Part shown: positions 3,525 through 21,247 of the stretch, in pieces
How the letters are laid out: each line of letters opens with the position of its first letter
Position numbering within the stretch: position 1 is the first letter of the stretch
Assembly (NCBI GenBank): GCA_052139695.1
Contig: JBKQWF010000170.1
Location: 8,602 to 72,601 of the forward strand
Reading direction: 5' to 3'
DNA from: Limisphaerales bacterium
GTDB taxonomy: Bacteria; Verrucomicrobiota; Verrucomicrobiia; Limisphaerales; Palsa-1400
Length of the DNA stretch: 64,000 bases
Made by a program: the position numbers and the translations under genes
Notes under the pieces: generated by a model
Database searches by the model: none
What the model saw: the letters and a program-made list of their open reading frames with translations, nothing else
Told to the model about the DNA's origin: nothing

Positions 3525-3585
3525 GCGCCAATCCCACGGCATTCTGAATTACACCACCAAGCCGTATCTATGCGGAATGGATTCT

Positions 3586-3611
3586 GAGCGCGGGCGTCCC
3601 GCCCGCCGAAG
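3586..3611 (-). repeat. REP-like family 1 copy
   Basis: Minus strand reads CTTCGGCGGGCG-GGA-CGCCCGCGCTC. Intergenic, after ftsK. Confidence 0.55.
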
Positions 3612-4016
3612 TCATCAGCGCCGCGAGAGTTTTCAAGTTTTCAGTAAGATGTGAGTGGGTTTGGCTCCTCCGTCGGCCGGCGGGACCCCCGGCTGGAATT
3701 TAGTGTGGCTCGGAGTCTTCATACCTTCAACATTTGGCGGGCTTGGGCCGAGGCGATCTGAATAGTCTCTCAATCACTAAACGTGGCCAATGCATTTGTT
3801 AAATGGATAAACTGGTTTTCATAAAGAAGTTCCAAAGTTAGGAACTGCCCCTTCTCCCTCACAATCCCTGCCGCCGCAAAGCTCTCATCGGCAAAATCTT
3901 AGGCACTATCTAAGCAGCATTCAGGCGCCTGCATGCACGCGAACGGAGGAAAAGCGCGGGAATTCCAGAAAAAAAGTGCGGAGCTTCACACGAAAGCGTA
4001 ATATGCTGCCAAACTG

Positions 4017-4532
4017 ATGCTCACGATCCCGCATTGCAAAGAGAGCCTTAGCCGCGCATACGTCACCGCCGTGGTCGGACGCTCGCGCAATAACCTACTG
4101 TGGGGACGCGAATACGATTATGGCGTGGACGGCTCCGTTCGGATTCTCAAACAGCGAGGAACTCGAATCCGTGAGATAGGGTTGGGCTTTGATTTTCAGA
4201 GCAAGACCACGACGGACTGGGAAATTGGCGGCGCCGAGGTTGTTTATGATCTCGAAGCAGATGCCTATAACGATTTGGTGGAACGCGCTGGGTCTGGCGC
4301 TTTTCCTTTTCTTTTGGTGTTGCTGTGTCTTCCAAAAGACGAGGCAGGTTGGCTCGATGTTTCGCTGGACCAACTGATCCTTCAGAAGTGTGCTTTTTGG
4401 TTGAAACTGAATGGGGCGCTGACAAATAACGCCGCGACGCGACGAATTCGTATTCCAGTGGCGAACGTATTCACTCCCGCTGCCGTCAGCGGAATCCTTC
4501 ACGACATCGAAACTGGAGTGATGCTACCATGA
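4017..4532 (+). CDS. DUF4365-like PD-(D/E)xK (restriction-endonuclease-fold) protein, gene A of a two-gene cassette
   Basis: 171 aa. The motif order E9 ... D34-YGVDG ... FQ61-S-K63 ... PFLLVLLCLP ... CAFWLKL matches my recollection of the DUF4365 pattern (E, DxGxD, QxK, hydrophobic strand, xYW). Overlaps the next ORF by 4 nt (ATGA). Lower G+C than the flanks. Confidence 0.6.
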   Translation: MLTIPHCKESLSRAYVTAVVGRSRNNLLWGREYDYGVDGSVRILKQRGTRIREIGLGFDFQSKTTTDWEIGGAEVVYDLEADAYNDLVERAGSGAFPFLLVLLCLPKDEAGWLDVSLDQLILQKCAFWLKLNGALTNNAATRRIRIPVANVFTPAAVSGILHDIETGVMLP

Positions 4533-5665
4533 GCTTCCTTCCAGCAACTGCCGCTGTGTTGACGAATCTACGGAAATACCTGCTCTCGCATGGTTGGGTT
4601 AAGGTTGTCCATCCAAACACACGAATTGAGCTTCTCCAAAGCAAAACGGATGGGTCAGGAGATTACGCTTCTCTTTCCATTCCGACATCGCCTGAACTGC
4701 GTGACGCTGCGAGCCTCATCAATGAGGCAGTTCGACTGGTGGCGGACTACGAGAGCATGCCGCTGCAGCAGATAGTTGATCGTGTGTTGCGTTGGGATCG
4801 GGACATCTTGCGGATGCGGTTTTTCAAAGTGGTAGGCAGTGAAGATTCGTTGCCACTCGAAATCGCTGCTGAATCGATCTCCAATCTAAAGGAGTTCATT
4901 GGCTATGCCGCCTACACCCATAGCAATCCGCAACCATTTTTTGATAAGGCTGGAGCGATAAGTGCTGAGTTCGCACAGCACTGTTTGTTTGGCCACACGT
5001 TTCAAGGCAGCTTCGGTTTAACCATCGAGTGCCCGCTCGCAGTTGTGCCTGAGCTTCCAATGGAAGGAAATGAACCTGTCGTCCCAATAGAGCGACAGGT
5101 ATTCGAGCGAGTCGCCAACGGTCTGGTAATCCTGCGGGAGTCCGTTGCGAAGGAATCCATTGACCCACTTCTTGCCGGCTATCTCACTGGCTTCAGCGCG
5201 AATATGTGCAGGAAGCTGGCAGAGATTTACCAGAAAGCGGATGGACGGCGAATCGAATATGATATTGCCTGGAGCCCGCAACTTCCTACTGCATGTGAGC
5301 CCGCTTGGAAACCTTTTGTATTTGAAGGTCGTGCTTATGATTTCGCGAGGATTGCTGCCGGCGAACTGGAAAAGGCTGAAAAATTTCCCGAATCGGTAAT
5401 TGAAGGTCGCATCGTCGTTCTAAAGTCGGAGATGCCTCCTGGTCTGGACGAACAAGCGGAATTCGAGCATATCATCACGATGTTCTGGGAGCGCGAAAAA
5501 GGTCAGCTCACCAAGATTCGAGTGCCGCTTACCCCAGCACAGTACATGCAGGCTTGCGATGCCCACAAGGAGGGCAAAGCAATCCGGATTTTTGGTGTTC
5601 CGGAAAAAGCTGGAAAGTTCTGGACGCTGACAAAGGTGCATGATTTCACGGTTTTGAATAAATAG
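4529..5665 (+). CDS. hypothetical protein, gene B of the two-gene cassette; no recognisable motif
   Basis: 378-aa ORF translationally coupled to gene A (ATGA overlap at 4529-4532). Globular-looking composition, no TM segment, no P-loop, no metal-binding or nuclease signature that I can see. Same lowered G+C as gene A. Confidence 0.6.
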   Translation: MSFLPATAAVLTNLRKYLLSHGWVKVVHPNTRIELLQSKTDGSGDYASLSIPTSPELRDAASLINEAVRLVADYESMPLQQIVDRVLRWDRDILRMRFFKVVGSEDSLPLEIAAESISNLKEFIGYAAYTHSNPQPFFDKAGAISAEFAQHCLFGHTFQGSFGLTIECPLAVVPELPMEGNEPVVPIERQVFERVANGLVILRESVAKESIDPLLAGYLTGFSANMCRKLAEIYQKADGRRIEYDIAWSPQLPTACEPAWKPFVFEGRAYDFARIAAGELEKAEKFPESVIEGRIVVLKSEMPPGLDEQAEFEHIITMFWEREKGQLTKIRVPLTPAQYMQACDAHKEGKAIRIFGVPEKAGKFWTLTKVHDFTVLNK

Positions 5666-5877
5666 GGTGATGGCACGAAGCGCAAACGCTGTCCGGCATA
5701 AACTGTGTTTGCCGCTACGAAACAAGCCGTCTCGATACGTTGTGTGCCAGCCCCGAAATCACCCGCTCGAATTCTCTGCAACGCATCGAAAGCCGCGACA
5801 AAACTCACGCCAAAACCACGCCAATAACGAGAAAGCTTCATAATCCGGCGCGCGATGATGCCTGACGGGCGCAGTTT

Positions 5878-8211
5878 TCACAGTGGAGGGGGCATTGTTC
5901 CGTTGGCGTTGGCGGAGGTGCGCGCGCGCATCCAGAGCCAGTCCTGCATATCCCGTTTATTGGCCACGGGCGCCTGCTTGATTTTCTTGGCCGGACTCAT
6001 CCAATGGTGGGATTCGGAATGGCCGTCGGCAAAGGCAAATCCGCAACCGCCGTTATGATAGATTCCCGGCGCATCGATCCAGACCGCTTCCTCCATGCCA
6101 AAGGCAAAGGCGGCGTCGTTCAGGCCTTTGGGGTCCTCGTCGAGCAGCACCCAGAGATTTGCCGGGCCCGGGGCGCGGATGGCGGAGGACTTGCCATAAG
6201 TGATCCATGGCGAATCGCGCAAGTGGTTGTCCTCATTGTTCAACCAGGGGCCGTTGACCGGCAGGGTTGGCGCGCCGCTGTGGGCGTGCGCGGCGTGGTT
6301 CCTTTCCGCCGCGTCGTATCCGGGGCAAATCGTCCCGACGGCCTGGCTCATCGAGAAGGTGCGGGCCGCCGGGACATAGGTTCCCAGCAACGCCGGGTCG
6401 GACCCTTGATAGAGGCCCTGCCGCATATCCGCGGGGCAGCGGAATAGTTTCACATTGCCGCCCACGTAGTGGATAAGGAGGCTGCGTTTCGGGTCGGCGA
6501 GCAAATCCGAATCAAACTCCGCCGGCTGGCCGATGCCGGCCTCGCCCGAACACCAGTTGTGACCCGGGATCGTGTTCCCGTCGTCGGGGTCGGGCGGGAA
6601 AAAGTCCGCGTTGTCAGCCGTATAACTGGTAAGAGCGATGATCATTTGACGGCCGTTGTTCAGGCAATACGTTCCCTCCGCCTGGCCCTTGCCGCGCGAC
6701 AAGGCGGGGAGCAGCAGGGACGCGAGAATGCTGATAATCGCAATCGACACCAGCAATTCAATCAGCGTAAAGCCGGCGGCGGCAGTTTGCTTCGCCGGCG
6801 CAACCGCGGGCGCTGGCGTCCGCACAAAACAGGCCCGCACAGCCGCGCTGATGATCCCTGCCAGCAACCCGACGAGCATCGCCGCCAATACCGCGGTCCC
6901 CCAAAGTACCGGGTAAACCCAGGGGTACATCGGCTTCACCTCCGGCCGCGCCGGAGCGATCACTTCGACCGAGGGGCGGCTTGTATCCCGTTGCGCCATC
7001 CAGATTGTGGCGACACTGTTGGCCAGGTCGGCCGCCCCGCGGCGGTCCATGTCGTACGCTCCAATCGTGATCATGGTTTGATTGGTCATCTCCGCCTGGA
7101 TCAGGCCTCGCATAAAACCCGCCATGCGCGTCCGCGGCACCGGCGGCCCGCCCAAAAGATAATGGCCCAGCCGCCGAGCGACTCCCGGATTCTGAAACGC
7201 CGCCTCACGCATGACATCCTCGGAATGGACAGAACTGACTTCTTCATGAATCACCTTCGGATCGTTCGACCCAAGTTGGAGCAAGGTCTGGCTGAAATAG
7301 ACATGCGGGACGAATATTTCGATGGCCACGGCTGCGGCAATGAACCCCGCCACGGATGCGCCCGCCCAGGCCCACCAAAGCGTCCGCCGCGGCGCTCGAT
7401 CCGACCGCAGCGCCAGCATCGCCCGGTCCGCCTTGCTCAACTCGATCGCCACCGATTTGGTATCGCGCCGCAGTTCCCGCACGAGCATCGCGCCGCACGG
7501 AACGAAAGCGAACCCGCAAACAACAAACAGAATTCGCACCGCCGGGTCGAAGTGCCCGAAATTCCACCCGGCGCCTTCGGCGGCGTTCTTGCAGTCAATG
7601 CCATGCAGTTGCAGCAGTTTCATGGTCTCGGCATCCGCCGCGGCCAGGAAGCGAATGCGCGGGCGGCCTGGGAGCATGATGCGCAGACGTTTCGACCCAT
7701 TGGGCTGTTGCAGGAGCTCGAATTTCGCGCCGGTGGTTTCATTGACAATGCGCGCCACCGTCGCCGGGGGGATGGACTGCTCGGTCCAGTAGGACTTGAA
7801 CGCCAGTTGGTAGAAGCTGGCGGCCAGGCATATCGCGGGCAGCGCCATCCCCAAAAGACACCATTCGGCGAGGCGCTTGCGCTGCGCGTCATCACTGGAC
7901 TCGGTATCCGCGTAACTGACGGGCAGACGCCGCCACCATTTGACCAGCCAGCCCAGCGGAAGGATGATGACGATCAGATAATCCAGGCAGGCCCATAGGC
8001 CCAACGCGTCTCGTGCGCCAGCAAATGGACCGGCCAAAGCAGCCGGGATCGCCGCGAAGAGACCAAAGCCAACTGTCAACCAAATCCAAAAGCGCGTGGC
8101 GCGGCGGCACTCGCGCGCCGACCAGCGGACGGAGCGCCCCATAATCCAACCGAAGACACCTCCCAGGATAGCAAGGAAACCGACCAGCCAAAGAATCACT
8201 TTCGGCGTCAT
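5878..8211 (-). CDS. fusion ORF: N-terminal polytopic membrane region + Wzz/GumC-like chain-length-determinant-type periplasmic module + complete prepilin-type signal and H-X9-DG domain
   Basis: 777-aa uninterrupted frame. Residues about 1-290 carry several TM helices. Residues about 290-470 form TM - [12 protein letters not shown]...[26 protein letters not shown]...[17 protein letters not shown] - TM, which is Wzz-like topology and motifs. Then AAAG|[24 protein letters not shown] (class III signal, nt 6751-6774) and the tail [14 protein letters not shown] (H-X9-DG, about nt 6003-6062). Possible internal starts at 6930 (MYPW) and 6879 (MLVGLL). Confidence 0.6.
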
Positions 8212-8236
8212 AGGCTCGCCGTCAGATACAGTGGCA

Positions 8237-9118
8237 TTAAGCTTTTTTGACCTTCCAGGCCATGTCGAGCATTTCCCGGTCGTAAGGTTCAGGAATCACT
8301 CCTTCGGCGGCGTAGAGATAGAGGGCGCAACGATAGACGTTGCCCGCCACACCGGAAATGTAAGTCATCACCAGCAGACCGAGCAGCCAGATCGCGGCCG
8401 CAATGGCAATGAGCCACACGCTTTTGAAAAGGTAAGCCAGAGCTCCCGCCAACAAAAACGGCGGCAGCGAGCACAGAAAAATCGCCAATTCGGCGGCAGA
8501 AAACCCGACGTATCCAACCAAACTTTCGCCCCAAGCTTTCTTCAACGTCATGGCGGATTGCTGGAGGATCTTTAAGGGATTGCGCATCGGTTGCTCCTGA
8601 ATGATCACGGGAATGGCAAAGACAGCCGCGATGCTCCAAGCCAGACCGATAAATCCGGTGAAGATTCGTGCCGCGAACGGCAGACGCGCCTCCAGACTGC
8701 GAATGAGCCATCCCACTAAACCGGCGAAAAGCGACCAGACAACAATCGAAGGCAATCGGCCGTAGGCCGAGGCCAGGCCGCGCCGGAAGGAAACGCCCTT
8801 GCCATTGAGGGCCGCGATGATTTCGCTGTAAAAGGCGACGTTGAAAAAGGTGGCCAGAAGCATGGAGAGAAGATAGACCAACGGCACACAAAGCGCATAC
8901 GCCGCTCCGACAGCGGGAGTGGGAGCGAGATATTTATTGAGCGCAAGCCAATGGTGAGCGGCAACGGCGGGAATCACCATCGCCGAGAGAAAGAAGAGCG
9001 CGATGAATACTGTCAAAAATGTGATTAAAATCGGAAACCACAGCAGCTTGCGGTATTTGAACGTGACGCTGATAGACGCCTTGAAAAGGCGCCAACTGTT
9101 CTCGAATTTTGCCATCAT
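8237..9118 (-). CDS. polytopic membrane protein (resembles the DUF6159 type; family assigned from memory)
   Basis: 293 aa with about 6-7 hydrophobic helices. N-terminus [27 protein letters not shown]. 4-nt ATGA overlap with the upstream GntR gene. Confidence 0.6.
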
Positions 9119-9516
9119 AAGGTTGAGGAGTTGATTTCTTTGATGAAACTTAACAATTCACGTTCAGTCAAGCCAACGCTGGCGGCGTCGGCCAACAGCC
9201 GCTGATAGAGGTTTTTGAACTGGGCTCTTTTCTCCCGGACGTTCGGAGTGAGATCGGCGGGCTGGGCCTGGATGAACGATCCCCGGCCGCGTTCATTGGC
9301 GATCATTCCCGTCAATTCCAATTCGCGATACGCCTTGGCCACGGTGTTTGGGTTGACGTTCAAACGCTCGCTTAAGGCGCGAATGGTGGGCAATTGGTCG
9401 CCTGGCTGGAAGGCGCCGGCCGCCACCGCCGCGCAGGCCTGATTGATAATCTGCCGATACACGGGAATGCCCGAATTATACTCGACTTGCCACTGATCCA
9501 ACACGGTCCCTGCCAT
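9115..9516 (-). CDS. GntR-family transcriptional regulator, short YtrA-like subfamily
   Basis: 133 aa. Winged-HTH IPVYRQIINQ...GDQLPTIRALSERLNVNPNTVAKAYRELELTGMIANERGRGSFI followed by a short C-terminal helical region. Confidence 0.85.
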   Translation of the reverse strand: MAGTVLDQWQVEYNSGIPVYRQIINQACAAVAAGAFQPGDQLPTIRALSERLNVNPNTVAKAYRELELTGMIANERGRGSFIQAQPADLTPNVREKRAQFKNLYQRLLADAASVGLTERELLSFIKEINSSTL

Positions 9517-9540
9517 AGAATCTGTGTCCTATTTAACTCT

Positions 9541-9560
9541 TATACTAGTAGAATAGTACA
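9541..9560. promoter_or_regulatory. candidate GntR operator: imperfect inverted repeat TATACTA-N6-TAGTACA
   Basis: Lies 25 nt upstream of the GntR start codon (9516), in the divergent region between the GntR and NHL genes. Arms match 6 of 7 positions. No experimental or comparative support. Confidence 0.25.
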
Positions 9561-9911
9561 ATACCGCCGGTTCGTCAAGGGGTTTTTTAACAAAAATGGC
9601 GAATCCATAAATCAAGGTCAGTGGGCACTCTTGAAAACCCCGAAACAACTCAGCCCCTCGGGCATTTTTTACGTTCCAAAAACGAATCTGCGATTGTATG
9701 TTTTTCCAAGGCTGGGGAATCGCGCTTTGCGGCCCGTGCCTGCTGGTCCAACTGGTTTTGGTGATGGATCAACGTCGTTTGAAGGCGCTGGAACACAATT
9801 TGCGTCAAGTATTGTGTTGCGCTCTCAAAAGTCGCTTTTATCTCGTAAAAACGAGCGAAATTTGCCTTTGCTTCAATGCGTTTTAATCGTGTTCAATGTG
9901 CAAACGGAATA

Positions 9912-12641
9912 ATGGCGGGCTTCCGTTCGTTCCTTCTATTGATGATCCTGCGGCTGGCCGCTCTTGGCCAAGCCAATGACGCAACGCCCTATACCATCTC
10001 AACTTTGGCCGGAGGGCAGGCCGGTTTTGCCAATGGCACGGGAAACGTCGCCCAGTTTTCTTCTCCTCAAGGCGTGGCGGTGGACAGAGCTTGCAACATC
10101 TATGTGGCGGACTCTGGAAACAAGGCGATCCGCCAAGTGACGCCAACTGGAGTGGTCACAAAACTGGTCAGGGGAGGAATGTTCGTTTCTCCTTACGGGC
10201 TGGCCGTGGACAGCGCGATGAACATCTATGTAGCCGATCATGGTGGTGGCGCGGTTCGCAAAGTAACGATGGTCGGAACAAACTGGGAAGTTTCAACGCT
10301 GGCTGGTGGGTTTAGCGCTCCTTACGGTGTGGCGGTGGACGCGGCCACCAACCTCTATGTGGCAGACCAAGGTGCCTCCCTTATCCGGAAAATGGCGCGG
10401 GTGGGAACCAACTGGGTGGTCACGACCATTGCCGGACCCGCAGGATTTAATGGTCCTTGCGGCGTGGCGGTGGACAGCGCGACCAATGTGTATGTGGCGG
10501 GAGGTCAAAACCAGACGATTCAGAGATTGACGCCAGTGGGAACAAGCTGGGTGGTGACAACTTTGGCCGGACTGGCGGGCAGCCCTGGCACCAATGACGG
10601 AACGGGGAGTAACGCACAGTTTGATCTTCCTACCGGAGTGACGTTGGACACGGCGACGAACCTTTACGTTGCAGACCAACAAAACTCCACCATCCGGAGA
10701 ATCGCGCCCGTTGGCACAAATTGGGTCGTAACGACTTTGGCCGGCATGCCGGGCAGCGTCGGCACCAATGACGGGACCGGATGCGCCGCGCGGTTTGCTT
10801 CGCCTGCCGCTGTGGCGATGGACGTGGCCGGGGATCTTTGTGTGACGGACGCGCAAAGCAACACAATCAGAAGGGGGTTCCCAGCCAACGGCCCTCCGGT
10901 TATTCTGACCAATGGGACCGGTTTGGCATTTAGCAACGGTTTGTTCGGCTTTTATATCACCGCAGCGGCGGGACGGCCTGTGGTGGTCGATGCCTCGACC
11001 AATTTGGTGACATGGCTCCCCATTTGGAACACTAACGTGGGCGCGGGTGTCCTGCCTTTCAGCGACCCGCAGAGCGAAGCCTATTCCAATCAGTTTTACC
11101 GCGCCCGTTTTCCGTACCCTCGCCGGCCCCTCGGCGTGTACGCCAAGGTTGATTTAACATCTGTTATCAAGCCGCGGACCAATGCGGACTGGAGTTCCTA
11201 TTTTGATTGTCTCTACTCGAATCTTCTGGCCAATCCGGCGATCTCGGGGCTGACGCTTCAGGTGCATTGGGATTTGGTCAACACGGCACCCGGCGTTTAC
11301 AATTGGTCGTATGTCACGAACGCATTCATCCAGACGTCGAACTGGAACGCGCAAAATCCAAACGCCCAGAAAAACATCCAGTTCATCATCACGCCCGGCT
11401 TCAATTCACCCCCGTGGTTATTAACCAATATCATATCTTCCGACGGATCTTGTGACGGGTTGTTTGCCAATCAGGGCGCTTCCAATAACTGCGGAACCGT
11501 GACCTTCATTGGTTACAACGAAAACGCGGACGGCAATGTGCTGCCGTTGCCGTGGAACCAGACTTACGTTTCTGCCTTCACCCAGTTCCTGTATGCGCTC
11601 AACAAGCAGTTTGGCGATAACCCGTTATTTGTCTCCATCTCGGTCGCTGGCCCCACTGGCGGCTCCGCGGAAATGATCTTGCCCAATGACGAAAACACGT
11701 GCCCATGCCATGCCGTAGTGCCCAACACCTGCGGCACCAAATGCCCTTCCGGCACAAACGCACAGTTGCAGCCCAATGACCTGACGCCGAGCCAAATGTG
11801 GAACCAACTGCTCACAAACCGATTCGGCGCCTCGTCCAAAAAATCTAATGATGAATTTGTCCAGGAGTGGGAAAACGCAATTAACCTCTACGACGGGATC
11901 TTTCATGGCGTGACGCTTGTTCTCACCCCTGGCGATGGCGAAGGCTTCCCCTTTGGATCGGCCAACGCGACCACAAACCCGCTCTGCCAGTACTCCATGG
12001 ACGAAAGTTGCACGGCGGTGGGAAGCATTCTTTCGTACTTCGAGAGCTTCCAAAGCGTCAATGGAAATGGAAAGGCCACCCAGATAAGCGGGTTGGCCGC
12101 CTCGAGCGACACATTGACCAACGGCGACGCGGGCATGGGCGGAGTGAAACTACTTTCGGCGCTATCGGAGACGGCGGCCCCATGGGATCAGATCATCGGA
12201 GGCGCCCAGTTCGATCATGGCTTCTCGGGGTGCCTGCCAAACAAATGCGCGCCGAACCCTGAGCAGGAGGAGTTTAATGTGCTGGCGAACTTTTTCAACG
12301 GCACGCAAGCCGTGTATGGCACGGCGACCTTCCCTGCTCTCTTCGAAGCCGTCACCAACGAGAGTCCGGTCAACTTCCCGCTGACGAACTCAGCGCCCCT
12401 AAATTATTTGCAGGTATTCTACGAGGACGTCCAATATGCTGGGAGCAACGGCTGCGTATGGATTGACCGCACAGGCGGAACCAATGGAGTCCAATCTCTT
12501 CACGTGTCGGCCCAGGATCTTCTCAACCAGGCGAGCGAACTGCTCTTCACCATCGGCCAGACGACCTATCCCCAGGGATCGATCCCGTCGTATCCGCCCG
12601 CCTGTGCGAACTCGCCTCCGCCCGCGTGCCAACCGCCCTGA
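9912..12641 (+). CDS. secreted NHL-repeat beta-propeller protein fused to a C-terminal putative (beta/alpha)8 glycoside-hydrolase-like domain
   Basis: Signal peptide MAGFRSFLLLMILRLAALGQA (the ORF track starts at 9876; 9912 is the likelier start). About 7 repeats of the type TLAG..G..G.G..AQF..P.GVAVD.A.N.YVAD.....IR...P.G. An internal FYR module at about 10921-11111. The distal approx 510 aa contains LQVHWDLVNTAPGVYNWSYV, which is reminiscent of GH TIM barrels. Confidence 0.7.
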   Translation: MAGFRSFLLLMILRLAALGQANDATPYTISTLAGGQAGFANGTGNVAQFSSPQGVAVDRACNIYVADSGNKAIRQVTPTGVVTKLVRGGMFVSPYGLAVDSAMNIYVADHGGGAVRKVTMVGTNWEVSTLAGGFSAPYGVAVDAATNLYVADQGASLIRKMARVGTNWVVTTIAGPAGFNGPCGVAVDSATNVYVAGGQNQTIQRLTPVGTSWVVTTLAGLAGSPGTNDGTGSNAQFDLPTGVTLDTATNLYVADQQNSTIRRIAPVGTNWVVTTLAGMPGSVGTNDGTGCAARFASPAAVAMDVAGDLCVTDAQSNTIRRGFPANGPPVILTNGTGLAFSNGLFGFYITAAAGRPVVVDASTNLVTWLPIWNTNVGAGVLPFSDPQSEAYSNQFYRARFPYPRRPLGVYAKVDLTSVIKPRTNADWSSYFDCLYSNLLANPAISGLTLQVHWDLVNTAPGVYNWSYVTNAFIQTSNWNAQNPNAQKNIQFIITPGFNSPPWLLTNIISSDGSCDGLFANQGASNNCGTVTFIGYNENADGNVLPLPWNQTYVSAFTQFLYALNKQFGDNPLFVSISVAGPTGGSAEMILPNDENTCPCHAVVPNTCGTKCPSGTNAQLQPNDLTPSQMWNQLLTNRFGASSKKSNDEFVQEWENAINLYDGIFHGVTLVLTPGDGEGFPFGSANATTNPLCQYSMDESCTAVGSILSYFESFQSVNGNGKATQISGLAASSDTLTNGDAGMGGVKLLSALSETAAPWDQIIGGAQFDHGFSGCLPNKCAPNPEQEEFNVLANFFNGTQAVYGTATFPALFEAVTNESPVNFPLTNSAPLNYLQVFYEDVQYAGSNGCVWIDRTGGTNGVQSLHVSAQDLLNQASELLFTIGQTTYPQGSIPSYPPACANSPPPACQPP

Positions 12642-13030
12642 GCTGCCTGATTGCGGTCAGCGGAGGCGCTTGCGCTCCGATGTCTGGAGTGGGGTTACGC
12701 TCTCAAGACGCAGGACTTTATGATCACGATTGGAAGCGACGAAGGCGGTGTGGCTGGCATGACCACGAAGAAGAACATTCGGCATTTTACACGGGCACCG
12801 GCCAATGCGATGTTGGGCCGTCATGCGATTCACTTTTTCAAACACGCCATCGCTCATCGACGGTTTGTATCACCTCAACACGACGCCGGCCATTCGGCGG
12901 TCTTTTGCCGTCTCATCCCGCCCTGTTCATGCTGCTCGCAATTCATCAAATTCGTTTGAATTGGGGCGATCCCGTTAGTGGAAATCGTGGCTGCGAGGAA
13001 CCGTTTCAAACCCGCGCCGCGATTTCATTC

Positions 13031-14899
13031 ATGCTCAATTCTTATCCGTTGTTAGTCCAGCGGCTGCGGATTTTAACGGTTCTCCTGTTTTTCCACGCTA
13101 CTGCGAGTAGTTATGCGCAACAACCGCGATTCGCGGACTTAATTCCTTCCAGCCAACTGATCGGCGGCAACATTGGATGGGTCAAGGTCAACATGCTGAA
13201 CGCCGATGGCGGCCTGGCGACCAATTCGTCGGCGCAAATCATTTTAAGCGTCACCGGTCCGGGAAGTTTTTCGCTCGCGCAGACCAACACCACCACCAAC
13301 GGCGCCATCGTTTTCAACCTTTCCTCAACGACATTGAACCAGCCGGGGCTTTACACTCTGGCGGCCACGAGCAGTGGCCGCGTGCCCGCCTTTGAAAACA
13401 TCGGCGTGGAGACAACGCTGATGCCGCCGCAAGGTACGATCCTCGCTGGCGTGCGGGTCAGCCCCTCCACCGGGCCGGCCAACATTGACGCCTTGGAAAT
13501 CGCGTGCGGCCGGGCGTTCCCTTTGAGCATGCACTATTACGACTGGGCCGATAGCGCATTTTCCACGCCACAGGCATTTACGCAAACGAAAGGCATTTCT
13601 GACGACACGGCTAGCAACCGCATTCCGGTCGTTTCCTGGAATGCGACGAATCTCACCGACATCCTTTCCGGCACCAATAATACTGTGATCACCAACGCTG
13701 CCCTGGCAATGGCCGCCTTTCAGGGACCGATTGTGCTGCGCTGGGCTTGGGAGATGAACCTGCTCGGCACGAACGGCAAGGCGTGGGCCTACCTCGGCTA
13801 TCCAACGAATGGCAACGATCCGTCGTCCAACCAAGTGGCGGCGGCGCAAAGCAATTTCGTAGCCGCCTGGCGGCAAATCCGAACAATTTTCGATGCGAGC
13901 GGAGCGGCCAACGTGATCTGGCTGTGGAATCCCGGCGCGGGCAACGATTCCGCGCCCGGCCAAACCGCCGGCGGCTACACGGACGGATTTTATTCCGGCG
14001 ACGCCTATGTAGATTGGATCGGCCTCGACGCCTACAACCGGCAGGACGACGCCTTTGCCGACACTTTCATCGATGACCCCAGTTATGGCTACACCAACAT
14101 GGCGGCGCACGCGAAGCCGCTGCTCATCGGCGAAACCGGCGCCTACTTCACCAACGAGGCGCATCAAATCACCTTCTTCGGAGCGGCGGCGGGTTCGTTG
14201 CAGACCAACTTTCCGCAGTTGCTGGGCTTCATGTATTTTGACGCGAACGGCACCGGTGATGACTGGAGCCTGACGACTGCCGGCGCGAGCAACGGGTTGA
14301 CCGAGTTCAGCAATTTGATGCACAGCACCTATCTCAACGCCATTGTTCCGCGCTTCTTAAACTACGCGCAATTTCATGCGTTCAGCGCGCGGGTCCATGT
14401 CGCGTCCGCGGCAAGGACATTTCAAGGCGGCGTCATCGGCATTGGCGCGTCAGTGGACAATCTTTATTCCAACCTGCCCACGGGAAGAATTGATTTTTAC
14501 AGCGACACCAATTATCTGGCCAGCGTCGCTCTCTCCGGGGGTTCGAATGGCTCTTGCCAAGTGCAATCCTTCGTCGCCGTCACGAACCCGGGCACGCACT
14601 GGCTGAGGGCGGTTTATTCCGGTGACGCTAATAACAACGCCGGCCAATCCTGGCCGGTGCAAGTCAACGTGCTCCCACCGCCGTTGACCTTCCGAAGCAT
14701 CCAGGCAACGAACGGGAGAGTGGAATTGACTTGGAACAGCATGACCAACCAATCGTATCAAGTCCAATTCAGCAGGAATTTGGCAAAGGGCATTTGGACA
14801 AATCTGGGCGCGGTCATCGTCGCCACCAACAGCACGGCATCAACCACCGATGTCTTCGGCGGCACGACGGGATTTTATCGAATCACGATTCCACCATGA
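13031..14899 (+). CDS. secreted GH26-like glycoside hydrolase (mannanase-type motifs) with Ig-like and FYR C-terminal modules
   Basis: Likely start MLNSYPLLVQRLRILTVLLFFHATASSYA (signal peptide). The track ORF begins at 12626, but that extension looks non-coding. Motifs LRWAWEMN, NVIWLWNP, YSGDAYVDWIGLDAYN and KPLLIGETG follow GH26 order. Tail VELTWNS...YQVQFS...FYRITIPP. Confidence 0.65.
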   Translation: MLNSYPLLVQRLRILTVLLFFHATASSYAQQPRFADLIPSSQLIGGNIGWVKVNMLNADGGLATNSSAQIILSVTGPGSFSLAQTNTTTNGAIVFNLSSTTLNQPGLYTLAATSSGRVPAFENIGVETTLMPPQGTILAGVRVSPSTGPANIDALEIACGRAFPLSMHYYDWADSAFSTPQAFTQTKGISDDTASNRIPVVSWNATNLTDILSGTNNTVITNAALAMAAFQGPIVLRWAWEMNLLGTNGKAWAYLGYPTNGNDPSSNQVAAAQSNFVAAWRQIRTIFDASGAANVIWLWNPGAGNDSAPGQTAGGYTDGFYSGDAYVDWIGLDAYNRQDDAFADTFIDDPSYGYTNMAAHAKPLLIGETGAYFTNEAHQITFFGAAAGSLQTNFPQLLGFMYFDANGTGDDWSLTTAGASNGLTEFSNLMHSTYLNAIVPRFLNYAQFHAFSARVHVASAARTFQGGVIGIGASVDNLYSNLPTGRIDFYSDTNYLASVALSGGSNGSCQVQSFVAVTNPGTHWLRAVYSGDANNNAGQSWPVQVNVLPPPLTFRSIQATNGRVELTWNSMTNQSYQVQFSRNLAKGIWTNLGAVIVATNSTASTTDVFGGTTGFYRITIPP

Positions 14900-17800
14900 A
14901 ATCCGGCTTTAACGCGGTACACCGAAAGATGTTTTTTTGGTGGACTTGTCTCGCTGGTGTCGTCATTGCATCGACCGCGCCGCGGGTTCGCGAGGCGCAT
15001 GGAGCATCCATGGGCATTTATCGAAATGTTCCACTTTCGGGAGCTGTGGCGGTTGTGGAAGCAATCTGGTGGTCCGGTCAGGGTCTGATTACAAACGATG
15101 TCCAGAGGTCGCAAATGATTTTTTCCAATGCGATCAGTAAAGGCCCATGGCAACCAGCGGGATATGCCGGACAACCTCTCTCGGGGGTGACGGTGGCCGG
15201 ACCGGCAGGAACGGTCCTGTCACTCCAGCCTCAAACACTCGGCCCCACCGGTGCGTTCGATGACCTGCGATTGCAGGAGCCGAATTCCATGCCCGGCCCT
15301 TACTCAATCACGGGGTTGGTCTTGTTTAACAAAACTTCCTTTGCGAATGTGCTTTCGACCGATCAAGTCGTCCTTTCGCCGACAAATATTTTTGCCGGAC
15401 TGTTTGCCGATGTCGCACCAGCCGCCGGGGATACGAGTGGAATACGGTGGGTGGTTGAGGACGGAACCAATTTTTTCATTTCGACAGCGTCCACCGGTTT
15501 GGCATCGGCAACGAATCCCAGCAGCATCAGCCAAAATCCCACCAGCCTTGCATGGTATGGTTATGACCCTTTGACGGACATCACTGCCATTGGAGCGATG
15601 GTGGCGCCGGGTTTCACCAACATCAACTATGTTGGATTTCGTCTTGAAGGGACTAGCGCAACGAACACCACCAGCACACTGGGCATCGCCGCCACGCAAC
15701 TGCGGTTTGATGTCACGGTGGCGGTTCCGGTGCCAGCCCGGCTGGTGCCGCTGCCACTGGATCAAACGCGCCTCACCGACGGCATGCTCGATGTCACAAA
15801 GTCTCCCTATTTTGCGGACAACAGTGGAGCCACGGATGCGCACCTGGCCATCCAAAATGCGATTAACGATGCCTACGCCGCGAACCTCATCGTCTTTTTT
15901 CCCCCGGGCACTTATCTTTGCACGGGCGGTTTGTCCTGCATTCAAACTCCCGGTCCTGCCTCGCCCGGCCAGCGCAAATTTGCCAACAAGTTGGTCGGTT
16001 CGACCCTGGGCCCGCGACCGGTGCTGAAACTTGCCGATGGCGCGGTCGTGACCAATATCATCGCTCCGGGCGGCGGGCCTTCGCCACCGGTTTACCCGGT
16101 CTTTGTCCAGTTTTCGTGGGTGGGCGACGAGGGCAATTCCGTGATCCAAGAAGACCCGGCATTGCAATACTGCTCCACGTTCCGGGGAATCGATATTGAC
16201 ATGGGAAACAACCCCAGGGTGTCGGCGATTCGGATGCTGGGAGCGCAGTATTGCGTGATCGAGGACGTGGATATTTATGGAACCAATTTCGGTTACGGCA
16301 TCGACGGTCTGCCCGGTTCGGGCGGGAGCGTTGCGAATTTGAACATTACCGGAGGCAAGATTGGAATTCGCCATAGCGAGTACCGGCCCTCGCCGCTCGT
16401 CACCGGTGTCAGGTTGACCAGGCAATCCAGCAACGCCATCAGCACCGCCGTTGTCCGCGGGCCGCTGGTGGTTGCCGGTTTCTGCATTACCGCTCCGACC
16501 AATCCCGCGCCCGGCTATGCGGCGGTTTTCTGCGACTCAACCAATATCGGCGGCAATGGCAGCAATCCGTCGGTGGGAAATCTGGTCATGGTGGACGGCA
16601 CCATCGAAGTGCCGGGAACGAACGGCATCGGCATTTACAATTACGCGCAGGATGTTTACCTGCAAAATGTTTTTGTAAAGGCGGCGACCAACATCATCAG
16701 TGACGCGGCATCCAATTCGTCGAACTTTGTCGTGGTTCCCACAAACTATTGGGCGGACGCGGCGTGGTATTCGTTTCGGGTCGGGCGCGACAATGGCCAA
16801 CTGGTCCTGAATGGCCTCGACTATGGCAGCCATACCGACGCCGTTGCCTCGGTTGTTTCGCTCGCCGCTTCGGCGCCGTCCAATTTAATTTCACAACACC
16901 TTTGGCGGACAAATTTTCCGTCCTGGGAAGATCAACCGTTGCTGCGGATTACTGATCCGGAATTCGGCGCCGTTCCCGATGATCCACAGGTTGACAATGC
17001 ACCGGCGATTCAAGCCGCGCTCACGGCCGCGACCACCACCGACAGTCCCTATTTTGGAGCAACGGTTTTCATTCCGCGCGGACAATTTTATGTTGGCGGC
17101 CCGATCTTCGTGCCGGCAGGGGCGAAGCTCATTGGCGCGGGAGAAACCATTTCCGTTTTGGAAGCCAGCGAAAACTGGCTTGTGTCCAACACCACTTCCG
17201 TCCTGACCACAGAAAACAATTCCACAAACGGAGTGACGCTCGCCTTCTTTGCTCTCGTCGGAAACGAGGCAACTCCGGCTTACAGCGGTTTCCCCGACAC
17301 GACCACACAACGCTGCCTGCGCCTGGCCACGGTGCAGTCCGCAAGTTCCATCTGGCGCGACTTGCAACTGGATCAGCGGACCGGCAGCGGAATCGCCCGG
17401 GAAGCCAGCGAGCCGTTTGCGGTCTTCAGCGGTGATGGCGGCGGCCAGGTTTATAATCTTTGCCTGGATTTTGGCAACACGCCGCTGGCGGCCAATCAAC
17501 CGGACCCGTCATTCCACCTGTTCAGCGTGCAGAACACCCCGATGCCGCTTGCTTTTTACGAACCTGATCCCGAACATCTCGACCAGGGAGCAGCCTCGGT
17601 TGCAGTTGACAACGCTGGATCGGTGGCGTTCTTCGCCTTCAAATACGAAGGGAGCCATCAAATGCTGTCAGCCACTAACGTGACGCATTTGCAGGCGTTA
17701 GGTGGGTCTGGTAACTACGGCCAAGCCACGAATTCGATCATCGCCATTGGTCAATGCGCCGATTTTCAAGTGGCCGAACTGTGTCGCGACCCGGGCACCA

Positions 17801-18194: not shown

Positions 18195-19664
18195 GTGCGT
18201 GGCTTGATTCCACTTCTCCGGTCGGCGCTCATAGGCGCAATGCTGCCGGCCAGTATTCCCGCTGTCGCGCAACCAGCCCCAATCCTAACTTGGATCACCA
18301 ATTCGTCGGTCAAGCTGGAACAGGTCATCGGTGACGTGGATTGGGCCGACGGCTCGAATGTCACCAGCCAGACGATCTCCCGGTTCAACATCGAAGGGAC
18401 GGACGTCAGCGCCACCTTTTTGAGTGGCACCAACCGGATTTATATTTTTGGCGACACGATCGGGAGCAACATTAATTATCAGGCTGCCGATCCAGTGGCC
18501 TGGAGCAGCACTGCCGACGGGGAAACGGGCCTGCTGCTCAATTTCTATACCAACCGCGACGGCTCAAACGTCTTTGTCGATCCGAAGGGCATCAGCATGG
18601 CTGGGGACGATACGCCCAATGCGGGCATCTGCATTTCCAATGTCAATTACCTCATTTGCAACACCGGCTCCAACACCAACGGGACCAATTCTGCCCAAAA
18701 GCACGCGGGCGATTATTCCGTGCTGGTCACGTTTAACCAAACCAACCTGACCTTTCAAACCAATCGCACGATTTCCGTCCTTACCAACGGCGGTCATTTT
18801 ATCATCAACTCACTCCACCTGTTTGGGACCAATGTCCTGATGTTTGGCGAGGGCGGGTATCGGGCCAGTGACATTTATCTAGCAACAACACCGGTCAGTT
18901 CCTATCTGAGCGGAAATGGAACCCTCTACTTCACTGGCCTGACAAATGGCCAGCCGAACTGGAGCAGCATTGAAACGAATGCCGTTCCGGTGGTGCAGGA
19001 CAATCCCACCAACGGCCCGCCATCGGTCGGTAACCTGTCGGTCATTTACTCGACCAGCCTCAACCTCTGGTTGATGGCCTACGACGGCGGCCGAAACACA
19101 GCCTCGCCCTCCAATACCACCGGCATTTATTTCTGTTCTGCCGCACAGCCGTGGGGTCCTTGGAGCACGCCGCAACTCATTTTTAACTCGACCCGCGATC
19201 GTGGCGCGGGCGTGTTTATCCATGACAATAGGTACAACCCGCCGGGCCTCATCGGTCCCACCATCAATCCTTCGAACCATAATCCCACGAACACGGAGGG
19301 CACGGTTTATTCCCCTGACCTGATTGAATCGTTCACCACAATCTCAAACAGCACGCTCGATATCTATTACTTGATGGCCACTTGGAACCCCTACACTATC
19401 GTGAAAATGCGTTCAGCCTTCACCATCAACCCGGTGATCGACCCCGCTTCGCTCGTAAAATCGAAAAAAAAGTTCAGCTTCGCTTGGACGGCTCCTACGA
19501 GCATCGTTTATCAGGTGGATTACTCAACCAATTTGCTGGCCGCCTGGAATACAATTACCAACCTTGTCACGTCCACTAATGGAATATTCAATTTTACCGA
19601 CAATGGCACCAATAGCGGCGGCTTCGGCAATACAAAGTTTTACCGGCTGCAAAGTTTGCCATGA
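18195..19664 (+). CDS. secreted protein, DUF4185-like beta-propeller (putative glycoside hydrolase) with an FYR C-terminal module
   Basis: GTG start and a signal peptide (LIGAMLPASIPAVAQ). The IYIFGDT motif and overall Ser/Thr/Asn-rich propeller-like sequence. Tail FSFAWTAPTSIVYQVDYSTNL...FYRLQSLP. Family call is from memory and weak. Confidence 0.5.
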   Translation: MRGLIPLLRSALIGAMLPASIPAVAQPAPILTWITNSSVKLEQVIGDVDWADGSNVTSQTISRFNIEGTDVSATFLSGTNRIYIFGDTIGSNINYQAADPVAWSSTADGETGLLLNFYTNRDGSNVFVDPKGISMAGDDTPNAGICISNVNYLICNTGSNTNGTNSAQKHAGDYSVLVTFNQTNLTFQTNRTISVLTNGGHFIINSLHLFGTNVLMFGEGGYRASDIYLATTPVSSYLSGNGTLYFTGLTNGQPNWSSIETNAVPVVQDNPTNGPPSVGNLSVIYSTSLNLWLMAYDGGRNTASPSNTTGIYFCSAAQPWGPWSTPQLIFNSTRDRGAGVFIHDNRYNPPGLIGPTINPSNHNPTNTEGTVYSPDLIESFTTISNSTLDIYYLMATWNPYTIVKMRSAFTINPVIDPASLVKSKKKFSFAWTAPTSIVYQVDYSTNLLAAWNTITNLVTSTNGIFNFTDNGTNSGGFGNTKFYRLQSLP

Positions 19665-21247
19665 CGAAACGAGCCATGCACTTTCGATACATTCACTGGG
19701 AAATCGAAGTTGTTTTTGCTGCGTGCGCGTTGTTGTTGCTCCTGGCCTCGAACGTGCAAACAGACGCGCAAGTGCCGGCGGAATTCACCAATCTCTACGC
19801 GGAGCTGCAATCCAACATCACTAATTTTGAAGCGACGCTGGACACCAATTGGAATGGATTGCAAACCGACTGCTCGATGGGGGCGGTGCTCATGCCGGCC
19901 ACCAGCGAGGGCCGAGGCTGGGGCACCTCGGGCGATGCTTCCAGAGACACCAATTTTCTGAATAACATCGTCGTTCCCTATCTGAATGGGTTGCAGGCGA
20001 TGGGCATCACAAGCGTCAAGTTTGCCATCCAGTTTCCAGTCCTTTACCAGCCTTACTACGACGCCACCAATGGAGCCAACAATCCGGCGGGTTACACCAA
20101 CACCTTCAACTTTTACACCAACCTCTGTGCTTTGCTGCGCCAGCGCGGGATCAAGATCATTATCCCGGTTGGAGACCTGGTGAGTCCCGACACCACGGTC
20201 GCCAATTATGAGGAGAATCTGACCTTTGCCCAATTTCTTGCCGGTCGCAGCGCAATCAACCAGACCGTCGCCAAATATCTGAAACCGGATTATCTGCTCC
20301 TCCAATCCGAGCCGAATACCGAAGCCGACAACCTGCCGCCCAGTTTAGGCAACCAGTTCACAAACGCGGCGGCGGACATGAACATGATCTCGAATTTTTT
20401 GAGCGACCTGCAGGCAACCGGGCTGCGGACAACCAACATGATTGTCGGCGCGGGCTGCGGCACCTGGCAGCAGGATTTCACCAACTTTCTGTCCGGTTTC
20501 ACCAATCTAGCCGGACTGGACTTGTTGAGCATCCATGTTTACCAAATTACTGTTCATAGCAACATCGGCCTCAACCACCTGCAGCGCGTCCTGCAAATGG
20601 CCGATGCCGCGCATGGCGCCAACACCCTTCACCCGCACGGCATGCGCGTGGGCATTAGTGAATGCTGGCTGAAGAAAGTGTCCCTGGCCGAAGAACAAAT
20701 GAACGCGGTCACAGGCAATACCATCAATGGCCGTAACGTTTATAGTTGCTTTGCCCCGCTGGACCGGGAATTTCATCTGAGCATGGTCAAGGCTGGATAC
20801 TACGAACGGATGGACTTTATTGAGCCCTATTGGACAGAATACTATTTCAGCTATTTGGACTACAATCAAATGCAACCCATTGTGCAATCCCTCGTCAGCT
20901 CAAACTGGACGGCGGATCAGATCGGCCTCTTCCTCCAAAATACCAACCAGTCGCTGGTTTTGCCCGTACTCGCGATGGGACAGCAAACGGCCGCCGCCCA
21001 AGGCTACTCTGAATATCTTCAACCCGGCCCGCCGACACTGTGGATCACGAACAACGTCGCTGGCTCCGTCAGCCTGGGTTGGTCGCCGGTGGCGTTGGAT
21101 TTCTTTTTGGAGCACAAATCTCATCTGCTTAGTTCCAGTTCCAATTGGACTTCCATCCCCATACTGCCCCGCACAGTGGGAAACGATTTTAACGCTTCCA
21201 TCATTACCACCAACGAACGAGAATTTTATCGCCTACATCTACCGTGA
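19661..21247 (+). CDS. secreted putative clan GH-A-like (beta/alpha)8 hydrolase with an FYR C-terminal module
   Basis: ATGA overlap with the previous gene. A hydrophobic signal/anchor (VVFAACALLLLLASNVQTDA). Candidate acid/base LLLQSEPNTE and nucleophile GISECW segments. Tail VSLGWSP...FYRLHLP. Confidence 0.5.
   Translation: MTKRAMHFRYIHWEIEVVFAACALLLLLASNVQTDAQVPAEFTNLYAELQSNITNFEATLDTNWNGLQTDCSMGAVLMPATSEGRGWGTSGDASRDTNFLNNIVVPYLNGLQAMGITSVKFAIQFPVLYQPYYDATNGANNPAGYTNTFNFYTNLCALLRQRGIKIIIPVGDLVSPDTTVANYEENLTFAQFLAGRSAINQTVAKYLKPDYLLLQSEPNTEADNLPPSLGNQFTNAAADMNMISNFLSDLQATGLRTTNMIVGAGCGTWQQDFTNFLSGFTNLAGLDLLSIHVYQITVHSNIGLNHLQRVLQMADAAHGANTLHPHGMRVGISECWLKKVSLAEEQMNAVTGNTINGRNVYSCFAPLDREFHLSMVKAGYYERMDFIEPYWTEYYFSYLDYNQMQPIVQSLVSSNWTADQIGLFLQNTNQSLVLPVLAMGQQTAAAQGYSEYLQPGPPTLWITNNVAGSVSLGWSPVALDFFLEHKSHLLSSSSNWTSIPILPRTVGNDFNASIITTNEREFYRLHLP

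Follow-up and report, generated by a model that had tools for sequence, protein, structure and literature searches.

Known relatives of the islet

The closest described relative of the two-gene islet reported here is the phage-defence candidate PDC-M02, which was published by Payne et al. 2024 in a "guilt-by-embedding" study that drew its candidates from genes lying inside BREX, DISARM, and type I restriction-modification (R-M) loci (bioRxiv 10.1101/2024.01.29.577857). The islet occupies positions 3655-5877 of a 64,000-nt stretch of contig JBKQWF010000170.1 from the Limisphaerales bacterium assembly GCA_052139695.1, referred to as the window, and carries two genes, here named A and B. In Table S8 of the same study, the cassette FAM_01850>>FAM_00842 is listed with 894 RefSeq occurrences and the entry "Assign as candidate PDC-M02", and rare three-gene variants of the cassette are listed as well (bioRxiv 10.1101/2024.01.29.577857). 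According to a 2026 survey, most PDCs are still awaiting validation. In a cold-seep study, protection of E. coli was seen for four of eight PDC/HEC candidates, a set that did not include PDC-M02, and the rate is taken here as a prior in favor of a defensive role.

The effector of the SPARDA systems belongs to the same DUF4365/DREN family as the product of gene A. In NbaSPARDA, the D41/Q60/K62 triad is needed for nuclease activity and defence (bioRxiv 10.1101/2023.06.08.544223; PMC12205087). The isolated DREN domain (~20 kDa) is monomeric and inactive until it is tetramerised by a target-induced Argonaute filament, and the resulting tetramer is an indiscriminate DNase that leads to cell death or dormancy (PMC12205087; bioRxiv 10.1101/2023.06.08.544223). 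A DUF4365 domain is also found in Divona, a cassette of a Vibrio chromosomal integron with reported anti-phage activity. Divona, however, is one fusion protein of a DUF4365/Mrr-like nuclease and a crr6 domain and has no PDC-M02B partner gene.

Both products of the islet matched the PDC-M02 profiles of PADLOC-DB v2 over their full length. Protein A was matched by PDLC04290 (PDC-M02A) with an E-value of 1.7e-57, residues 1-166 aligning to profile positions 1-165 of 170, and by 23 further PDC-M02A models. Protein B was matched by PDLC04333 (PDC-M02B) with an E-value of 9.3e-96, residues 10-377 aligning to positions 14-378 of 379. The two genes are adjacent, on one strand, and in the order A then B as in the catalogued family, with an overlap of 4 nt:

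4017..4532, + strand: gene A (PDC-M02A), 171 amino acids (aa), predicted free-standing DUF4365/DREN PD-(D/E)xK nuclease
4529..5665, + strand: gene B (PDC-M02B), 378 aa, member of a large family without a Pfam model

The original prediction, which was made from the sequence alone, had presented the pair as a candidate undescribed system. Judged by its profile matches and gene layout, the islet is instead an intact copy of the catalogued PDC-M02. The embedding of the pair in Hma, BREX, or R-M-like loci was reproduced in other genomes, whereas the copy in the window is solitary, lies outside any defence system, and comes from an uncultured verrucomicrobial-type metagenome-assembled genome (MAG).

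The nuclease A and its partner B

Protein A matched the Pfam family PF14280 (DUF4365) with 62.9 bits at a cut-off of 24.3 (E 4.4e-17, profile positions 1-136 of 139). The AlphaFold2 (AF2) model of A, built on 46 homologues, had a predicted local distance difference test (pLDDT) score of 92.8. In a Foldseek comparison of this model with the PDB, the top matches were the DREN-APAZ chains of SPARDA (9qcc, 9vx6, and 9jt2) with E-values of 4.6e-8 to 1e-5. The best match was 9qcc_M with an E-value of 4.6e-8 and a template modelling score on the query (TMq) of 0.63, and TMq was ~0.6 across the SPARDA chains. These were followed by archaeal Hjc resolvases (E ~3e-3, template modelling score on the target (TMt) 0.6-0.68) and I-Ssp6803I, and MspJI and SwaI were also among the structural matches. 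The link between A and SPARDA is drawn through structure comparison only, because searches of the PDB by sequence or profile gave no match for A at E <= 10; NCBIfam likewise returned zero matches. Taken together, the Pfam match and the modelled structure confirm the proposed assignment of A to the DUF4365 proteins with a PD-(D/E)xK restriction-endonuclease-like fold, in which the predicted topology is of the Hjc type.

The 46 homologues of A all share E9, D34, D38, and K63, and at least 90% of them keep Q61. The model places E9 in helix 1, D38 where beta-2 begins, and Q61 and K63 in beta-3. The motif E9...D38...Q61-x-K63 is intact in A and, by its order and strand positions, is the putative active site. 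All sequence marks that had been listed for A (E9, D34-YGVDG, FQ61-S-K63, PFLLVLLCLP, and CAFWLKL) were found where they had been placed, while the choice of D34 as the catalytic aspartate had to be revised. The catalytic residue is probably D38, because of the comparison with the DREN triad D41/Q60/K62 and because D38 stands at the start of beta-2.

The conserved D...QxK motif is thus shared between A and SPARDA. Unlike the SPARDA chains, A is a bare 171-aa nuclease domain that fills the whole protein and has no fused APAZ. Compared with Hjc and I-Ssp6803I, A has the same PD-(D/E)xK topology and the same motif order, with E in helix 1, D in beta-2, and (E/Q)xK in beta-3, but the identity is 7-13% and A has extra C-terminal strands and a helix. 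In further contrast to these enzymes, A has the obligate partner B and behaves as part of a mobile, defence-linked element.

For protein B, in which the original prediction had recognised no family, no Pfam or NCBIfam match was obtained. A Pfam search with 50 members of the B family gave no consistent match and only three single-member noise matches. Searches of the PDB by sequence or profile gave no match for B at E <= 10, and PHROGs returned weak matches to two families of unknown function. The B family comprises 4109 representatives of 50%-identity clusters (E <= 1e-3), of which the top 150 are uniformly ~370-410 aa long. The residues D92, T157, S161, R189, R194, Y339, H346, and G356 are deeply conserved across members with a median identity of 28%. 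A Cys/His zinc site (C152, H156, C168, C343, and H346) was considered and rejected, as its cysteines are not conserved at this median identity.

The AF2 model of B had a pLDDT of 85.5 and a predicted template modelling (pTM) score of 0.68. When compared with the PDB by Foldseek, only the C-terminal ~95-115 residues of this model matched (90-117 aligned columns), and the matches were to OB folds of the SSB/PriB/RPA type. The C-terminal region (~286-378) is thus modelled as an SSB-like OB fold, which may bind single-stranded DNA (ssDNA). The N-terminal and middle parts (residues ~1-285) matched no known structure in the same comparison. No Argonaute or APAZ chain was among the listed Foldseek matches of B, though SPARDA entries are contained in that library. 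In contrast to SPARDA, B has no MID, PIWI, or APAZ similarity in Pfam or Foldseek, and no short prokaryotic Argonaute gene is present within +/-10 kb. Guide-dependent sensing is not expected because PDC-M02 has neither Argonaute nor APAZ.

The pair in other genomes and the setting of the islet

Loci of the family were collected with a profile scan using one genome per species, which yielded 80 loci. These span ~10 phyla with a patchy distribution and were found in Verrucomicrobiota, Cyanobacteriota, Chlorobiaceae, Chloroflexota, Alphaproteobacteria, Acidobacteriota, Planctomycetota, Desulfobacterota, Paenibacillus, and Saccharimonadales. The pairing on which the original prediction was built is conserved: in 75 of the 80 loci, the gene directly upstream of B is a DUF4365 open reading frame (ORF) in the same orientation, mostly with the 4-nt overlap seen in the window. 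Of the five exceptions, most have truncated B genes or too little upstream sequence for A. A and B give correlated pairwise distance matrices (r = 0.87, Mantel p = 0.001), and both genes therefore travel and diverge together. No recurring neighbour family was found as a third conserved gene beyond a lineage-specific Hma-like embedding. At locus L088, where B is 84% identical to the B of the window, a third co-directional ORF (9137-10018) begins at the stop codon of B; it encodes at least 294 aa, has no Pfam match, ends at the contig edge, and is absent from the window.

Close homologues of B occur in unrelated contexts. At 84% identity, the pair follows ThiC near a TIR-STING gene, and at 69% identity it belongs to an island that also encodes a tyrosine integrase, a DnaB-like protein, and a giant DEAD helicase. 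The A-B pair was found on 15 plasmids and in 4 IMG/VR contigs. On the p28 plasmid of Entomospira, it is located between three DUF262 genes, HicA, and an abortive infection (Abi) gene. The G+C content of the cassette was below that of its flanks in 19 of 21 loci, with a mean difference of -0.08. The A-B pair thus behaves as a mobile unit. In LE1, a temperate phage of Leptospira (NC_048892.1, 38735-43418), gp38 and gp37 lie directly downstream of gp39, an MmeI-family type IIG R-M enzyme. The product of gp37 (381 aa, annotated as hypothetical) is a homologue of B with E-values of 6e-19 in tblastn and 1.4e-27 in Foldseek, and gp38 (176 aa, annotated as hypothetical) is the counterpart of A by position and size alone.

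At four loci from four phyla (L014, L015, L016, and L023), the pair lies inside a conserved co-directional block. The order of the block is a 940-aa protein, a 319-aa unknown protein, A, B, and a 1179-aa DUF1156/HmaB/PglX-like methylase (5649-15861 at L016), and the DUF499 match of the 940-aa protein is weak and sub-threshold. L016 was the sole block locus examined for further genes, and a HEC-01 ATPase follows the block there, with SoFic and a NACHT-DUF4062-FGE-sulfatase protein upstream. The block independently reproduces the "embedding" signal of PDC-M02.

In the window, the layout of the islet and its surroundings is as follows:

3525..4016: upstream non-coding region, 492 nt, from the ftsK stop at 3524 to the start of A
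left copy 3558-3574, right copy 5723-5739: imperfect direct repeat of 17 nt that brackets the cassette, 14/17 identical
3591-3609 / 3673-3691: inverted repeat of 19 nt, 89% complementary, just 3' of the ftsK stop
3673-3696: terminator-like hairpin, just 3' of the ftsK stop
5666..5877: downstream non-coding region, 212 nt, up to the stop codon of a convergent gene for a 777-aa protein

The layout that the original prediction had described was exact. Both ORFs are on the + strand and overlap by the 4-nt ATGA, the non-coding flanks measure 492 and 212 nt, a TAATAT hexamer is present at 3999-4004 and 12 nt 5' of the ATG of A, and no GGAGG-like Shine-Dalgarno sequence was found 5' of A. The hexamer is a possible -10 element for a near-leaderless transcript. 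A GGAG occurs ~10 nt 5' of the ATG of B itself. No sigma-70-like promoter was detected in a consensus scan, no terminator-like site was predicted on the + strand within 5666..5877, and Rfam returned zero matches in the islet or in the entire 64-kb window. The hairpin and inverted repeat at 3591-3696 are probably the terminator of ftsK. The upstream region 3525..4016 is not a required part of the system, because it is not kept at L088, where A begins ~15-135 nt after ThiC.

The G+C content of the islet is 52.1% compared to 58.45% in the whole window, and the values of 47-50% reported earlier are local ones from 60-nt blocks. The islet has the lowest content of all sliding windows of 2223 nt, and 0.16% of these windows are as low. 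In windows of 400 nt, the islet ranges from 0.505 to 0.53 compared to 0.60-0.655 in ftsK and the gene starting at 5878. G+C at third codon positions (GC3) is 0.561 in A and 0.526 in B compared to a mean of 0.679 (standard deviation 0.07) in 43 long ORFs. The regional dip of about 6 points is real and not extreme, and the composition supports a foreign origin of the cassette.

Gene content within +/-10 kb was taken from the Pfam table of an identical public contig (GCA_052325445.1). As had been noted before, this table contains no methyltransferase or integrase gene, and no tRNA was found across the 64-kb window. The islet thus differs from an R-M system by having no cognate DNA methyltransferase within this distance. 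Of the hallmarks of an integrative element or prophage, the integrase and the tRNA are missing over these same ranges, and the sole candidate repeat is the imperfect 17-nt pair, CAAGCCGTATCTATGCG (3558-3574) and CAAGCCGTCTCGATACG (5723-5739). This repeat may be an insertion scar or may have arisen by chance; the chance expectation for such a pair between both intergenic regions is ~0.1 by a rough estimate. An empty site was looked for in the 80 closest ftsK-bearing metagenome loci, which have 82-96% amino acid identity. In the sequence available after ftsK at these 80 loci (up to 7 kb), A and B are both absent. No clean empty site was obtained among them, because nucleotide homology does not extend past the ftsK stop codon and each locus has different genes beyond it.

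Other features of the window were recorded alongside. The 777-aa neighbour (5878-8211, - strand) has a prepilin-type N-terminal methylation motif (GFTLIELLV...) that is internal, at residues 479-500, and is preceded by ~480 hydrophobic-rich residues, whereas the motif is normally N-terminal. The gene may be a fusion, have a mis-called start, or have an unusual architecture. The second-lowest G+C stretch of the window (about 0.525-0.536) lies at ~18195-21247 and holds two overlapping co-directional ORFs, which encode a DUF4185 protein (18195-19664) and a 528-aa protein without a Pfam match (19661-21247). A 60-nt tandem repeat (2.6 copies, 74% matches) is located at 47154-47308, inside the ORF 46587-48539.

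Proposed mode of action and rival explanations

The reading that is preferred here, and that is held with moderate confidence, is that the islet is an intact and horizontally acquired PDC-M02 in which A is the nuclease effector, B, which is translationally coupled to A and inherited together with it, is the sensor or regulator, and infection triggers the degradation of DNA. At rest, A would be monomeric or held by B, and inactive. During infection, the OB and middle domains of B would detect a phage-derived cue, for which ssDNA, a replication intermediate, or a phage protein are the most plausible candidates. B would then release A or assemble it into an active oligomer, and the active A would degrade DNA indiscriminately, which would stop the phage and, probably, the host cell with it (abortive infection). 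The data show the membership in PDC-M02, the fold and motif of A, the conservation and co-evolution of the pair, its mobility, and its defence-associated contexts elsewhere; a defensive role of the pair, the role of B as sensor, the nature of the trigger, and activation by oligomerisation are inferred, the mechanism by analogy with SPARDA. By this analogy, an inactive nuclease that is switched on by a sensor is probably a logic common to both systems.

Since A is essentially the DREN domain alone, B is proposed to take the place of APAZ and Argonaute as sensor and scaffold. A more specific form of the preferred reading is put forward tentatively, as a possibility that may well fail: PDC-M02 would be an Argonaute-independent DREN switch, in which B, with a previously unseen fold that ends in an OB domain, directly recognises a replication product of the phage (ssDNA) or a phage protein, needs no guide, and scaffolds free monomers of A into the active tetramer. 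If this is true, the SPARDA effector would be a portable module that serves at least two unrelated sensors.

Several points weigh against the preferred reading. The searchable literature yielded no experimental test of PDC-M02. The residues of A were mapped to the DREN triad by motif order and secondary structure and not by residue-level superposition, and the interaction of A with B and any oligomerisation are purely analogical. The OB-fold matches of B have probabilities of 0.94-0.99 but weak E-values of 0.02-0.15, and the most conserved residues of B are not obviously nucleic-acid-binding. The cassette in the window stands alone between ftsK and the prepilin-like gene, and the 10 kb on either side hold no defence gene. 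A census of neighbouring genes (~240 ORFs at 30 loci) found scattered HerA+DUF4297, type IIG R-M, DrmMI, MADS, PifA, and DruM, but it was heterogeneous, consisted mostly of ordinary genes, had no background control, and is descriptive only. The original prediction of a defence module on foreign DNA is supported in part, by the foreign composition and by the defence and mobile contexts in other genomes; its defence interpretation is reasonable.

An unlikely alternative to this sensor-driven nuclease is a restriction-like direct targeting, in which B would tell foreign DNA apart by, for example, a modified base, ssDNA, or a structure, and A would cut that DNA without a methylase. The defence would then be of a type IV-like or Hjc-like structure-specific kind, with no collateral damage or cell death. 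After DREN, the nearest folds to that of A are those of nucleases specific for a structure or a sequence (Hjc, I-Ssp6803I, MspJI, and SwaI), the OB fold modelled in B is a common nucleic-acid-recognition module, and the pair often lies embedded next to methylase and R-M genes, while no cognate methylase would be needed in the window. However, the only characterised DUF4365 nucleases, those of SPARDA, are indiscriminate collateral nucleases, and B has no recognisable domain for reading modified bases.

It is quite improbable that the pair is a toxin-antitoxin-like addiction module, with A as a toxic nuclease and B as its antitoxin, that mainly stabilises the mobile DNA carrying it and does not act against phages. 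The gene pair is tightly overlapping and co-inherited, has copies in plasmids, a plasmid-prophage, and islands, and at least one other multi-gene PDC (PDC-M05) has a toxin-antitoxin-like architecture. B, however, is large with 378 aa, lies downstream of A, and has no helix-turn-helix or typical antitoxin domain. By analogy with the isolated DREN of SPARDA, which is inactive, A need not be toxic alone, and the cassette in the window is chromosomal with no other recognisable mobile-element gene nearby.

A housekeeping role in DNA repair or recombination, with A as an Hjc-like junction resolvase and B as an OB-fold ssDNA-binding partner, would agree with the structural likeness of A to Hjc resolvases (E ~3e-3, TMt 0.6-0.68), with the SSB- and PriB-like C-terminus of B, and with the position of the pair next to ftsK, but it is very improbable because of the patchy distribution across phyla, the mobility on plasmids and phages, and the atypical codon usage, and it is further opposed by the embedding of the pair in Hma and R-M clusters and by its absence from the sequence available downstream of ftsK (up to 7 kb) in all 80 of the closest ftsK-bearing relatives.

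The present analysis adds to the catalogued system a model-based structural link between M02A and SPARDA, and a predicted OB-fold C-terminus of M02B in an otherwise unmatched fold. It also adds the quantified conservation and co-evolution of the pair and its presence in phage LE1 and on plasmids. With 894 RefSeq occurrences and ~4100 clusters of B at 50% identity, PDC-M02 is among the most abundant untested multi-gene defence candidates. The B family, probably a new sensor fold, lacks a Pfam model and a solved structure, and no published experiment could be found. The link of A to the DREN domain of SPARDA would provide a concrete and testable mechanism, namely the sensor-driven oligomerisation of an otherwise inert nuclease. 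The islet in the window itself is one more instance of a catalogued system, from a verrucomicrobial-type MAG, and the family to which it belongs is a good experimental target.

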